NCBI GenBank assembly: GCA_023245145.1
Contig: JAHFKW010000001.1
Location: 9,823 to 73,822 of the forward strand
Direction of reading: 5' to 3'
DNA: 64,000 nt
Source: Candidatus Staskawiczbacteria bacterium
GTDB taxonomy: Bacteria > Patescibacteriota > Minisyncoccia > Minisyncoccales > Staskawiczbacteraceae
Under the pieces are notes generated by a model. That model ran no database searches and was not told the origin of the DNA. It was given only the letters and a program-made list of their open reading frames with translations. Each line of letters opens with the position of its first letter. Positions within the stretch are counted from its first letter, which is position 1. Positions 32,282 through 34,911 of this stretch are shown in pieces. The position numbers were made by a program, and so were the translations under genes.

Positions 32282-33238
32282 TTATAACCTATTTTTAATC
32301 TTTTCAGTATTCCCATGTTTTAACAACCCCAAATAGGAACTTATTGTTTGCAAAGAGTTACTTTTCTTTAATCTTTTTAACATCCTTTGCTTAGTTTTAG
32401 TGCGAATAACTTTGTGGTCGTTAAAATTCACCCACCCTAAAAAATCTACACCTGAAGAAAAGGTTTTAATGAACAGTTTATCAGGATGCAAAGATAATTT
32501 TAATCTACTTTGTAAAAATTCATTGATTAATGGAATTAAGCTTTCTAAATACTGCCTATCTTCTGATAAAAACACAAAATCGTCCGCGTATCTTACATAA
32601 TGTTTTATGCGTAAAGTATGTTTTACAAACTGATCAAACTCATTCATATAAATGTTGCAAAAAAGCTGGCTGGTGAGATTACCCAGCGGCAGGCCGGTGC
32701 ACGGCCTGCCGCTGTCAAAACTGCCGATAATGTTAGCCAGCAGGTTTATGATATTGCTATCCGGAATATATTTTTCCAATATTTCCAACAATATACGCTG
32801 ATCAATAGAATGAAAAAACTTTTTGATGTCGCACTTGAGTACCCAACAGGCATGGGTATGGTTTTTTGAGACTATTCGGGCAAAAGAGTTAAACTGCGAA
32901 ATGGCTCGGTGAGTACCTTTATTATTCCGACAGGAATATGAATCAAATATAAAACGCTCGTCAAAATAGTCATACAGCACCCGATACACCGCGTGGTGCA
33001 ACAATCGGTCACGCACGGTGGCTTTATGGATAGTGCGGGGTTTAGGGTCATTGATTTTAAACTCTTGGTAGCCACCGTGTTTATATATTCCGCTTGCTAA
33101 ATCTTGATGAAGTGCTAGTATGTTATCCATTAGGTTGAATTGAAATTCTTGGACGTCTTTTTTCATTTTCTTTCCAATCAAAAAATCCTGCCAAGCTAGC
33201 AATAAATTTTCAATACTAATTAAATATTCATAATTCAT
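32282..33238 (-). CDS. Diversity-generating retroelement reverse transcriptase
   Basis: RT motifs PKPRTIHKATVRDRLLHHAV, GLPLGNLTSQLFCNIYMNEFD (the DGR-specific [ILV]GxxxSQ replacing QG), YVRYADDFVFL (YADD) and SGVDFLGW. Start set at Met17 by alignment to DGR RT N-termini (NLxxAW). Confidence 0.85.
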   Translation of the reverse strand: MNYEYLISIENLLLAWQDFLIGKKMKKDVQEFQFNLMDNILALHQDLASGIYKHGGYQEFKINDPKPRTIHKATVRDRLLHHAVYRVLYDYFDERFIFDSYSCRNNKGTHRAISQFNSFARIVSKNHTHACWVLKCDIKKFFHSIDQRILLEILEKYIPDSNIINLLANIIGSFDSGRPCTGLPLGNLTSQLFCNIYMNEFDQFVKHTLRIKHYVRYADDFVFLSEDRQYLESLIPLINEFLQSRLKLSLHPDKLFIKTFSSGVDFLGWVNFNDHKVIRTKTKQRMLKRLKKSNSLQTISSYLGLLKHGNTEKIKNRL

Positions 33239-33631
33239 ATGACAAATTCCTTTAACCCCCCCCCATCCCTTTTGCCTATTTTGCAAAAAGCCAAAGAGGC
33301 TTATTTAGTTTGGTATCAATATTACCTGATTGTGCCAAAAACACATAGACATACTTTGGCACAGAAAATTGATGAATTGTTTACCCACTGTATAGAAGCC
33401 ATAGTGACTGCCAGTTTTCTATCCAAAGAAGAAAAGTTACCCTACGTACGCCAAGCTATTAGAAAAACTGACACCATTAAAATCTTTTTAATGATTCTCT
33501 GGGAAACAAAATCTCTCAACGACAAAAAATATATTTATATTTCTTTAAAAGTAAATGAGATTGGTAAGATGCTGGGTGGCTGGCAGGGACAATTAATAAA
33601 AAACTCTCCCAAATTAGGAGAGAAAAAATAA
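33239..33631 (+). CDS. avd: Avd-like accessory variability determinant (four-helix-bundle, TIGR02436-like)
   Basis: 130 aa helical protein ending EIGKMLGGWQGQLIK, which is the EIGKML[GS]GW signature of Avd/four-helix-bundle proteins. Central LIVPKTHRHTLAQKIDELF resembles bAvd IAQSIPRKHGVAREMF. Immediately followed by the TR. Confidence 0.55.
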   Translation: MTNSFNPPPSLLPILQKAKEAYLVWYQYYLIVPKTHRHTLAQKIDELFTHCIEAIVTASFLSKEEKLPYVRQAIRKTDTIKIFLMILWETKSLNDKKYIYISLKVNEIGKMLGGWQGQLIKNSPKLGEKK

Positions 33632-33636
33632 GAGAG

Positions 33637-33763
33637 TTGCGGGGACGGCAAAGGCGAAACCGTTGTTCGCATTCCAGTTGTCATCCGGCCTGTCATAGTA
33701 GGCATTGAGCCTCGGACCATCATTGCGGTTCGTGCCAAGCAAGTTAGGGTTGCCGTCGGAATT
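33637..33763 (-). repeat. DGR template repeat (TR), adenine-bearing sense on minus strand
   Basis: 127-bp near-identical copy of 34129-34255. At all 11 mismatches TR has A (minus strand), within AAC/AAT Asn codons when read in the target frame. Non-coding, 6 nt after the avd stop. Confidence 0.85.
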
Positions 33764-34021
33764 GTGCAAAATATCACCCATACCACTACCCCTTAAGCGC
33801 TTGTGCTTTCAGGGCTGTATCTAATTCGGTAGCTAAACTACCATAATATTTTGCACCAAGTATCTTTATTTTTAGAATCGTCGTATATCCAAATTCGTAA
33901 AGCGAATTTTTCTCTACTTTCAACCTTAGTCAAAAGTATTCTCAATATACAAAAATTAGCTTCGGCAGCCTGAAATCGTAATTTCGAGCGTATTCGCCTA
34001 ACCGAAATTACTATATCATAT

Positions 34022-34059
34022 TTTTTACAAAAAAACTGCCCTCATCTGCTGATGAGGGC
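34022..34059 (-). terminator. Stem-loop with T-run about 70 nt downstream of VR (terminator / DGR-associated hairpin)
   Basis: Minus strand: GCCCTCATC-agca-GATGAGGGC followed by AGTTTTTTTGTAAAAAA. Confidence 0.55.
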
Positions 34060-34120
34060 CGAACTAAGTTCAAGAAGATCAAGGGCCGACGAGGCCAAAG
34101 TCTCAAGAACAAAGTTCTTA

Positions 34121-34792
34121 TTAGATACTTGCGGGGACGGCAAAGGCGAAACCGTAGTACGCATGCCAGTAGTCATCCGGCCTGTCATAGTAGGCATAGA
34201 GCCTCGGACCATCATAGCGGTCCGTGCCAAGCAAGCCAGGGCTGCCGTCGGAATCTTCGATGGGCTCATGCATCGTAATGATCCATGTCAAGCCCATCTT
34301 GGCAATCTCCTCGTCCGTGAACAGATCGCGGATGAGACAGCCAACTTCGGCTTCTGGCTTTTGCCACTTGCGCGTTTCTTCGGCCTCCTTGCGGATGGCT
34401 TTGGTACGACGCTCATCGTTGGTATCCCAGAACTTTCCTGGGATAACGGCGATGTTGTAAACAACACCGCTCGTCGCCCTGAACTTTTTTGAGCGAAGGA
34501 CACTCTTGGCGTAGCTGGACAGATAGATACCCTTCGCTTCAAAGTGAGCAATCCATTGCTCACCCGTTCTGCCGTTAGACGTGACGGTGAAACGGATGGT
34601 ACCGTCGGCATCCAGGTGCCACAAGCAAGTCGGCTCTTCTGGAATCTTGCAAAGGCCCAGCAAGAACCTTTGCCGATCTTCTGGATGCTCGATCCACCAC
34701 TGCAAAACGTTGACCGGGATTTTCGTCACGATCACGTTCAGCGTCTGGATCAAAACCGCGAGAAATTGAAGGATCTGCTCAATCTTAGCCAT
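34121..34792 (-). CDS. DGR target protein with C-terminal variable region (C-type-lectin/FGE-like ending), no signal peptide
   Basis: ORF ends ...DSDGSPGLLGTDRYDGPRLYAYYDRPDDYWHAYYGFAFAVPASI. The VR covers the last 45 codons. Start at ATG 34790-92, with an AAAGGAA SD 8 nt upstream (the track ORF uses an upstream TTG at 34855). Visibly G+C-rich. Confidence 0.75.
   Translation of the reverse strand: MAKIEQILQFLAVLIQTLNVIVTKIPVNVLQWWIEHPEDRQRFLLGLCKIPEEPTCLWHLDADGTIRFTVTSNGRTGEQWIAHFEAKGIYLSSYAKSVLRSKKFRATSGVVYNIAVIPGKFWDTNDERRTKAIRKEAEETRKWQKPEAEVGCLIRDLFTDEEIAKMGLTWIITMHEPIEDSDGSPGLLGTDRYDGPRLYAYYDRPDDYWHAYYGFAFAVPASI
34129..34255 (-). repeat. DGR variable region (VR) at 3' end of target gene
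   Basis: Pairs with the TR. Differences from the TR are T/T/G/T/T/T/G/G/G/G/C on the coding strand opposite TR adenines. Invariant GC-rich 3' end (GGTTTCGCCTTTGCCGTCCCCGCAA) shared with the TR, as an IMH-like element. Confidence 0.85.
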
Positions 34793-34911
34793 GGCGTTTT
34801 TTCCTTTCGTAGGTGTTCGCCAACTATTGCTTATAATCACGCCAACATGACGCAATCACAGCATACCTTAATCATACACCCTGCAAGCAGGCTTGTCAAG
34901 GCCACCCTCTT

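Follow-up and report, generated by a model that had tools for sequence, protein, structure and literature searches.

A diversity-generating retroelement of architecture B3 in a Patescibacteria contig: a predicted self-contained template RNA and a slippage-prone repeat at the 5' end of avd

Introduction

The mechanistic model of diversity-generating retroelements (DGRs) comes from a single Bordetella phage, BPP-1, in which sequence passes adenine-specifically from a template repeat (TR) to a variable repeat (VR) and Avd is a partner protein. The BPP-1 DGR RNA runs from the 3' end of avd through the TR into a 140-nt spacer, Sp (Handa et al. 2018, PMC6182149; preprint 10.1101/2023.10.23.563531). 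A large share of known DGR diversity is held by the Candidate Phyla Radiation (CPR) or Patescibacteria, in another gene order. According to Wu et al. 2018 (PMC5758913), 90% of the CPR DGR set has architecture B3, written TR-(avd)-RT, where RT is the reverse transcriptase and parentheses mark the reverse strand. The DGR described here lies in a Candidatus Staskawiczbacteria bacterium (GenBank assembly GCA_023245145.1), within a stretch of 64,000 nt of contig JAHFKW010000001.1 (positions 9,823 to 73,822, forward strand). We call this whole stretch the window and give all positions in its coordinates.

Contingency loci include the poly-G/C tracts of Campylobacter and Neisseria, the poly-C promoters of the Bordetella fim genes and the (TA)n repeat between the divergent hifA and hifB promoters of Haemophilus. 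Retron non-coding RNA (msr-msd) is a short transcript with a structured 5' part before its template, and the RT is encoded separately nearby.

The window carries an ordinary, active DGR cassette of the CPR type with the B3 order target gene/VR, TR, inverted avd and RT, and its divergent avd/RT layout is already known from that class. What goes beyond the catalogue is an RNA domain 5' of the TR, supported by covariation and with predicted transcript boundaries, and a conserved, polymorphic repeat at the 5' end of avd. We think it fairly likely that all three descriptions hold together, the locus being a B3 cassette with a self-contained TR RNA and a contingency switch on avd.

Cassette layout and mutagenic homing

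The cassette comprises the following features.

34121..34855, minus strand: target gene, an open reading frame (ORF) of 244 aa with the VR at its 3' end
34254..34123, minus strand: VR, at the 3' end of the target gene
33762..33631, minus strand: TR, with the adenine-bearing sense on this strand
33239..33631, plus strand: avd, between TR and RT, 130 aa from the ATG at 33239
33238..32282, minus strand: DGR reverse transcriptase, 318 aa from Met17

Over 132 nt, TR and VR share 90.9% identity. Of the 12 mismatches, ten fall at TR adenines and two in a non-homologous 3' tail, giving the TR/VR pair with differences confined to TR adenines by which a DGR is recognized. No second VR was found in a search covering the full length of the window. 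Along 6957 nt the window and a sister contig (L081) differ at 12 places (99.8% identity), 11 of them substitutions that all lie inside the VR (34155-34198) and the twelfth a one-base indel in the repeat described below. With substitutions confined in this way to the VR, the alignment indicates that mutagenic homing is ongoing in the window DGR. Neither Pfam nor NCBIfam has a match for the target protein, and the start of its gene is ambiguous, the 244-aa ORF beginning at a TTG and the public call in the sister contig giving 223 aa.

The RT ORF matches RVT_1 (E 3.7e-25), and the models for group II intron, retron and DRT enzymes score far under their cut-offs on it. Its motif LGNLTSQ, read in the sequence, fits (I/L/V)GxxxSQ, which we take to be typical of DGRs. 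By the RVT_1 match and this motif, a DGR-type RT adjoins the TR. A profile hidden Markov model (HMM) search of the 130-aa ORF on the opposite strand gives 43.7 bits against Pfam bAvd (PF22296; gathering score 40), covering profile positions 5-104 of 107. Against NCBIfam DivGenRetAVD (NF033474) it gives E 4.7e-18 and 65 bits, so equivalog-level membership of Avd is not reached at the curated cut-off of 80. Protein similarity across the related loci reaches E 1e-55 in 77 of 77, and these matches identify the ORF on the plus strand as a true avd gene.

A scan with the RT, at one genome per species, found at least 581 relatives, and among the 80 listed nearly all are titled as metagenome-assembled genomes of CPR/Patescibacteria or of unclassified bacteria. 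In every fetched locus that has upstream DNA (77/77), the opposite strand carries an Avd homologue directly upstream of the RT. TR-VR mismatches in the relatives again fall overwhelmingly at TR adenines (1675 of 1782), and the VR sits 240-480 nt upstream of the TR with strikingly constant spacing.

The sequence, the TR/VR comparison and the HMM matches thus bear out the anatomy given in an earlier note on this DNA, with TR and RT on the minus strand, avd on the plus strand and the two ATGs abutting. The same note called the layout unusual, which is valid only relative to the Bordetella prototype, since B3 is both catalogued and the norm of the lineage, as the 90% share in the CPR set and the 77 of 77 relatives attest; in CPR genomes a divergent avd and RT are not anomalous. 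Compared with the catalogued architectures, the window is B3 (PMC5758913), having a TR, a reverse-strand avd and an RT with no further accessory gene, and it shares with that class the order and orientation of target gene/VR, TR, opposite-strand avd and RT as well as CPR/Patescibacteria hosts. It departs from the description of B3, so far as the available part of that paper's text goes, in the structured RNA 5' of the TR, the hairpin and U tract after it and the repeat at the avd-RT junction. We hold it very probable that layout, gene calls and RT start are as given here.

A structured RNA domain 5' of the template repeat

Because the distance between VR and TR is so constant, we examined the spacer that separates them. 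In the window a strong terminator-like hairpin (9 bp, 6 GC) follows the target gene at 34059..34038 on the minus strand, with a T run to 34030, and about 270 nt of non-coding DNA then lead to the TR. This interval holds the following predicted features.

34018..34010, minus strand: predicted extended -10 promoter TGATATAGT, with the TR RNA predicted to start at about 34003
34003..33764, minus strand: structured 5' domain of the TR RNA, about 240 nt, conserved and covarying
33989-33968, minus strand: hairpin A of the whole-spacer fold
33938-33915, minus strand, extended by 33951-33944 / 33910-33903: hairpin B of the whole-spacer fold
33856-33845 / 33775-33764, minus strand: P1 of a three-way junction, 12 bp, abutting the 5' edge of the TR
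33842-33828, minus strand: P2 of the three-way junction
33817-33784, minus strand: P3 of the three-way junction

To measure covariation in the junction, 87 loci were aligned by unguided MAFFT; the whole-spacer fold used 79 loci. RNAalifold places 23 pairs in the junction alignment, 21 of which show compensatory changes. Cells of the alignment are paired in 97.3% of cases, compared with 74.3% after column shuffles and 31-52% when the partners are slid; double changes number 467 against 127±17 in the shuffles, and the covariation score is 0.794 against 0.320, with none of 500 shuffles reaching the observed value. Hairpins A and B covary too, with about 98% canonical pairs and as many as six pair types at a position. 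In the window, a covariance model of the junction has a single match (97.7 bits); it also finds CPR loci held out of training and viral B3 loci (28-90 bits), with no match in DGRs whose RT is only about 30% identical. No Rfam covariance model matches at E<=1 on either strand of 33100-34300.

The promoter prediction, too, draws on the relatives. TAnnnT ends 6-7 nt upstream of a conserved 5' sequence, GGTAGTAGGCGAAT, in 78 of 79 loci, 59 of which have the extended form TGnTAnnnT, and in 65 of the 79 a run of five or more T, taken as that of the target-gene terminator, precedes the TR-RNA promoter.

Just 5' of P1, at 33870-33893, lies a small hairpin with an A-rich loop, followed by a conserved ATACTTGG. 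It is weak in the window; in most loci it reads CTTCA-AAAAA-TGAAG, and compensated variants occur. A 45-aa ORF inside the 5' domain (33786-33923, minus strand) is not conserved as protein and is probably spurious.

The predicted end of the TR RNA

A second conserved element follows the TR.

33622..33596, minus strand: stem-loop CTCTCCTA-ATT-TGGGAGAG (33622..33604), then a T run (U tract), overlapping the last avd codons

The stem has 8 bp in the window. In the relatives the end of TR-VR homology is followed by a conserved linker, CGCAACTCTCTTCATTT in consensus, then by a stem-loop with 7-11 bp and by TTTTGTTTT, the distance from the end of homology to the stem-loop being most often 11-12 nt, and the inner pairs of the stem vary among loci yet remain complementary. 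The 170 nt preceding the hairpin are a TR with a same-strand VR in 101 of 111 loci.

A strict terminator-like definition, demanding a stem of 7 bp or more with 3 or more GC pairs and 6 or more T among the 9 nt that follow, was applied to 125 loci. Such a hairpin stands at the TR-avd junction on the TR strand in 92 of them and on the opposite strand in none; within the antisense avd body beyond its first 35 nt or so it is seen in five. The controls give 0/125 for RT coding sequence and 1/125 for shuffled sequence. RNAalifold run on a MAFFT alignment of this hairpin returned no structure, the variable stem and loop lengths having been misaligned. Between L114 and L124, two loci of 96.7% identity, the loop of this hairpin shows a 4-nt indel.

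Avd-binding stem-loops have been predicted just 3' of the TR in 207 of 278 DGRs, with CPR among the taxa (Handa et al.). The element seen here is likely to be an intrinsic terminator, the counterpart of that Avd-binding stem-loop, or both, fitting the two descriptions equally. Together with its U tract the stem-loop probably ends the transcript, and the antisense avd sequence probably lies outside the TR RNA.

A model for the TR RNA

With its own promoter, a covarying 5' domain and a stem-loop with U tract after the TR, the TR RNA looks self-contained, and we regard a unit of about 410 nt including the 5' domain (34003-33597) as a good deal more probable than its absence. Its transcript would start at about 34003 from the extended -10 promoter at about 34018-34010 and open with the domain of about 240 nt, that is two hairpins and then the three-way junction with P1 set against the 5' edge of the TR. 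The TR would come next, and the transcript would end at the stem-loop and U tract (33622-33596).

The Bordetella RNA offers a suggestive comparison. Besides adenine-specific transfer from TR to VR and an Avd partner, the systems share a stem-loop directly 3' of the TR, at the site of the BPP-1 Avd-binding stem-loop, and a stable duplex abutting the TR 5' edge. TR-VR homology starts -3 to +8 nt from the end of P1 in 78 of 87 loci, so that P1 occupies the site of the Bordetella cPRT Stop duplex. They differ in that both strands of P1 lie upstream of the TR, unlike the BPP-1 duplex with one strand upstream and one downstream, and in that avd is inverted in the window and placed between TR and RT. 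Where a Bordetella-type element has a structured spacer of some 140 nt between TR and RT, the window lacks any long non-coding stretch after the TR: a stem-loop and U tract take up about 35 nt, the rest is antisense avd, and the structured RNA of about 240 nt stands 5' of the TR instead. By analogy we propose as a hypothesis that the topology of the Bordetella DGR RNA is permuted here: the part that binds the RT and forms the stop duplex (P1-P2-P3) would lie 5' of the TR, and the Avd-binding stem-loop alone would stay 3' of it. Retron RNA resembles the window-type RNA in its structured part preceding the template and in the separately encoded, nearby RT. It differs in its a1/a2 pairing, of which no like was found in the window-type RNA, in that the RT here is of DGR type and in that the cDNA is used for VR homing.

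Two candidate pairings were tried and rejected. For a retron-like a1/a2 helix joining the 5' end of the RNA to the TR 3' region or the tail, matched locus pairs folded no better than permuted ones (z = 0.1 and 1.4), and pairing of the P3 loop GAGAGU with the TR flank ACUCUC shows no covariation where either side differs.

A simple-sequence repeat at the avd-RT junction

The second feature of interest lies at the other end of avd.

33256..33264: simple-sequence repeat, C9 on the avd strand and G9 on the RT strand

The run stands six codons after the avd ATG and before the Avd core, and upstream of the RT Shine-Dalgarno sequence; it is the sole G/C run of at least 8 in the window. A survey of 145 non-redundant loci found a repeat at this junction in 137 of them, as follows.

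124 of 145 loci: G run of at least 6
12 of 145 loci: dinucleotide repeat, (GA)n, (GT)n or (CT)n
1 of 145 loci: tetranucleotide repeat (CTGG)9, replacing the G run (L153)
8 of 145 loci: no junction repeat

The G run is 6-14 nt long in the relatives, with a mode of 10, and none of the 145 loci has a period-3 repeat. Outside the junction, G/C runs of at least 8 number eight in 829 kb. The occurrence of a repeat at one spot in 137 of 145 loci, against a background of about one per 100 kb, argues for selection. What the junction sequences have in common, as compared across these loci, is slippage-prone repetition and not a particular sequence. The confinement to periods 1, 2 and 4 and the differing repeat sequences fit frame-shifting better than a role specific to one sequence or structure.

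A 'PPP' that recurs in the translated avd frame of the relatives is the G run of the RT strand; as a conserved poly-proline N-terminus of Avd it was rejected, since loci with dinucleotide repeats have SLSLSL or RERERE there instead. Pairing of the G run with the C-rich end of the TR was likewise discarded, there being no matching change in the (GA)n or (GT)n loci. Neither does the run suit an RT ribosome-binding site, being too distant from the ATG, with a separate AAGGA-like motif downstream of it.

The repeat is polymorphic among near-identical sequences. The window has G9, and three other assemblies of the same species, including the 6957-nt sister contig, have G10. A second Staskawiczbacteria species is represented by 12 contigs (NCBI, JGI, ENA and Logan) that are identical over 0.8-3.4 kb except at the run, which is G10 in eight, G9 in three and altered by a T-to-G change at its edge in one; there, G9 gives a continuous frame from the ATG into Avd and G10 leads to a stop after 49 codons. 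Elsewhere, a 10-nt indel in the (GT)n region separates locus L005 from L088, and a 2-nt indel at the run separates L114 from L124.

In the second species (L215-L221 and L225-L229) avd also has an internal frameshift near 'LLWET' (e.g. L226:916-1221), which puts the C-terminal 'GKIVGGW' of Avd in another frame in 12 of 12 contigs, and the VR is identical in every contig covering it. This DGR may be decaying or switched off, or there may be a second programmed shift.

Start codons of avd and RT

The two genes meet at CATATG (33236-33241), the RT ATG occupying 33238..33236 and the avd ATG 33239-33241. They abut because the avd ATG is the reverse complement of an RT His codon (CAT) that is conserved in nearly all relatives. 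Most RT homologues start seven residues earlier, at MKIQLxH, where the window has GTT in place of ATG. Compared with locus L003, about 24 nt that code for the RT N-terminus MKIQLx in the relatives are apparently missing from the window at 33239-33262, which would have brought a new ATG directly behind the conserved His codon and hence the CATATG abutment.

The RT start at Met17 (33238..33236) is well supported. Alignments of the homologues begin at residue 2-3 of the Met17 protein, public gene calling likewise gives 318 aa, and a Shine-Dalgarno-like sequence can be read 9 nt before the ATG.

33247..33253, minus strand: Shine-Dalgarno-like AAAGGAA of the RT gene, 9 nt before ATG 33238

An AAGGA-like motif also follows the G run in related loci, and 56 of 70 homologues have an in-frame RT start downstream of the run. 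No in-frame RT ATG, GTG or TTG is present before or after the G run in nine loci (L012, L022, L023, L024, L032, L041, L045, L046 and L056), and in five more (L049, L060, L063, L074 and L076) the only in-frame RT start is upstream of or within it; in such loci the repeat could set the RT frame too.

An avd start at 33239 is plausible without being secure. Its ATG owes the correct frame to the length of the C run, which is nine; with the run of ten in the three other assemblies of the species it is out of frame, and Avd is called as 119 aa from the TTG equivalent to 33272. TTG codons at 33272 and 33281 are alternative starts giving a protein of about 119 aa, which would span the entire Avd HMM. 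Putative viral contigs from IMG/VR (L162-L168 and L170) carry B3-type DGRs that keep the divergent avd and, in most, the 5' three-way junction, and none has the junction repeat. Their start codons form the same CATATG in L170 and a 15-nt avd/RT overlap (ATG...CAT) in L164 and L168. In these repeat-less relatives the avd ATG abuts or overlaps the RT ATG and is in frame with the Avd core in 7 of 7.

Promoter prediction for avd and RT gave weak consensus matches only. That both promoters lie inside coding sequence, as the earlier note had it, is a reasonable inference.

The repeat as a candidate switch on avd

From these data the most likely reading of the repeat, which we rate only slightly above an even chance, is that it acts as a phase switch on avd. 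The gene would be transcribed divergently from RT out of a compact junction and start at the ATG complementing the RT His codon, crossing the hypermutable repeat (C9 in the window) six codons on. Slippage by one base would then move the Avd core out of frame, as with C10 in the three sister assemblies, or back in, and the supply of Avd, hence mutagenic retrohoming, would be switched stochastically.

The likeness to known contingency loci extends to several points. The repeat has period 1, 2 or 4, lies in or just upstream of the coding region, a few codons past the start and between divergent genes, and is far above background frequency; its length differs between otherwise identical genomes, and a change of length toggles the frame. 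Unlike those loci, the window belongs to an uncultured CPR bacterium in which reversible switching of expression is a prediction, and the gene concerned is an accessory factor of hypermutation and not a surface antigen or a restriction-modification gene.

Weighing the alternatives

For the RNA, the alternatives turn on what the antisense avd sequence does. The earlier note had proposed that the DGR RNA might have a different priming architecture, with antisense avd in the position of the spacer. A different architecture is indeed suggested by the structured domain 5' of the TR; that it resides in antisense avd is not, hairpins occurring there in just 5 of 125 loci. If the template RNA is its own transcription unit ending at 33622-33596, antisense avd is not a priming spacer. 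We consider it unlikely that transcription instead reads from the TR through antisense avd toward or into RT, with the priming and RT-binding elements there. By geometry antisense avd does hold the place of the Bordetella spacer, intrinsic terminators may leak, RT has no demonstrated promoter of its own, and after the U tract comes the antisense of the Avd 'GKMLGGW' motif, which is strongly conserved. Yet the hairpin and U tract are strand-specific and directly 3' of the TR in 92 of 125 loci, the avd body is nearly free of terminator-like hairpins, its conservation is accounted for by a protein kept in 77 of 77 loci, and the covarying structure sits 5' of the TR, with no Rfam match. Some observations do weigh against a self-contained and permuted RNA. 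Promoter, terminator and transcript ends are sequence predictions. Covarying long-range pairing of the 5' domain with the TR 3' flank or U tail was limited to trivial purine/U-run matches, and in the relatives we found neither a covarying helix capable of carrying a primer to the TR 3' end nor covarying complementarity to the TR 3' flank of the kind expected for a Bordetella-type TR:Sp priming duplex. A full-text literature search, not covering Paul et al. 2017, found no account of the 5' domain, and an earlier description is possible. Very improbable is the earlier note's other suggestion, that the avd ORF is really the structured spacer, and so is an RT start at TTG 33286 that overlaps avd. 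Such readings can draw on an ORF open for 334 aa from that TTG and on an NCBIfam Avd score under its curated cut-off. Reading from 33286 would, however, pass through the G run; the alignment of homologues from residue 2-3, the AAGGA before Met17 and the public call of 318 aa all favour Met17, and 56 of 70 homologues have an in-frame start after the run. Avd for its part scores above the Pfam gathering threshold and is kept in all relatives, with similarity to E 1e-55 in 77 of 77, and both suggestions fall on these grounds.

For the repeat, the main competitor is that it is no translational switch. Avd would be made from TTG 33272, leaving the run in the 5' untranslated region of avd and upstream of RT, where it might tune transcription, for example through promoter spacing, or be a tolerated slippage hotspot. 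We see this as a serious but clearly less favoured possibility. Several facts speak for it, the first two also against a phase switch. The upstream avd ATG is in frame in 22 of 70 repeat-bearing loci, the one third expected by chance; a TTG, GTG or ATG follows within 21 nt of the run in 47 of the 70, and Avd could start there, which would put the repeat in the untranslated region; gene callers give a 119-aa Avd with a bAvd Pfam match in the G10 alleles; and in 12 of 124 loci the order G run, TAnnnT, 7 nt, RT ATG would put the run in a -35/-10 spacer. The switch is further weakened by the error-prone nature of homopolymer lengths in short-read assemblies, by the G9 allele of this species being seen in the window only, and by the second species, the most densely sampled of the polymorphic ones, where an additional avd frameshift and a static VR mean that repeat variation may be neutral. 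The same literature search, again apart from Paul et al. 2017, found nothing joining DGRs and Avd with homopolymers or slipped-strand mispairing. Against a non-translational role stand the retention of a repeat at this one spot in 137 of 145 loci, its far lower background, and the replacement of the G run by unrelated di- and tetranucleotide repeats, never of period 3. Moreover, the repeat-less relatives use the upstream ATG in 7 of 7 cases, 13 repeat-bearing loci have no other usable avd start downstream, and TTG is expected to be frequent by chance among the Leu codons of the L-L-P-V-L motif.

Implications

Whether both linked claims, a repeat-switched avd and an RT-recognition/stop domain placed 5' of the template by circular permutation, extend to most Patescibacteria DGRs is a more tentative matter, and we put it somewhat short of even. 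Were it so, targeted hypermutation would itself be stochastically on or off, a contingency switch governing a diversity generator, and the 5' RT-recognition/stop domain would imply a positioning of the primer different from the Bordetella paradigm. A repeat that truly acts as a switch would offer cells a simple genetic means of restraining a mutator directed at genes of their own. In that case a DGR present in a metagenome need not be an active one, and the run length in reads could serve as a marker of activity. The predicted RNA of about 410 nt (34003-33597) is a concrete substrate for reconstituting B3 cDNA synthesis and mapping its priming site.

One minor observation concerns the TR itself. 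In the second Staskawiczbacteria species, contig L216 has a 6-nt deletion (AACGCC) within the TR at about 765-770 relative to L215, and is otherwise identical to the other contigs bar a gap and a run of N near 2820.

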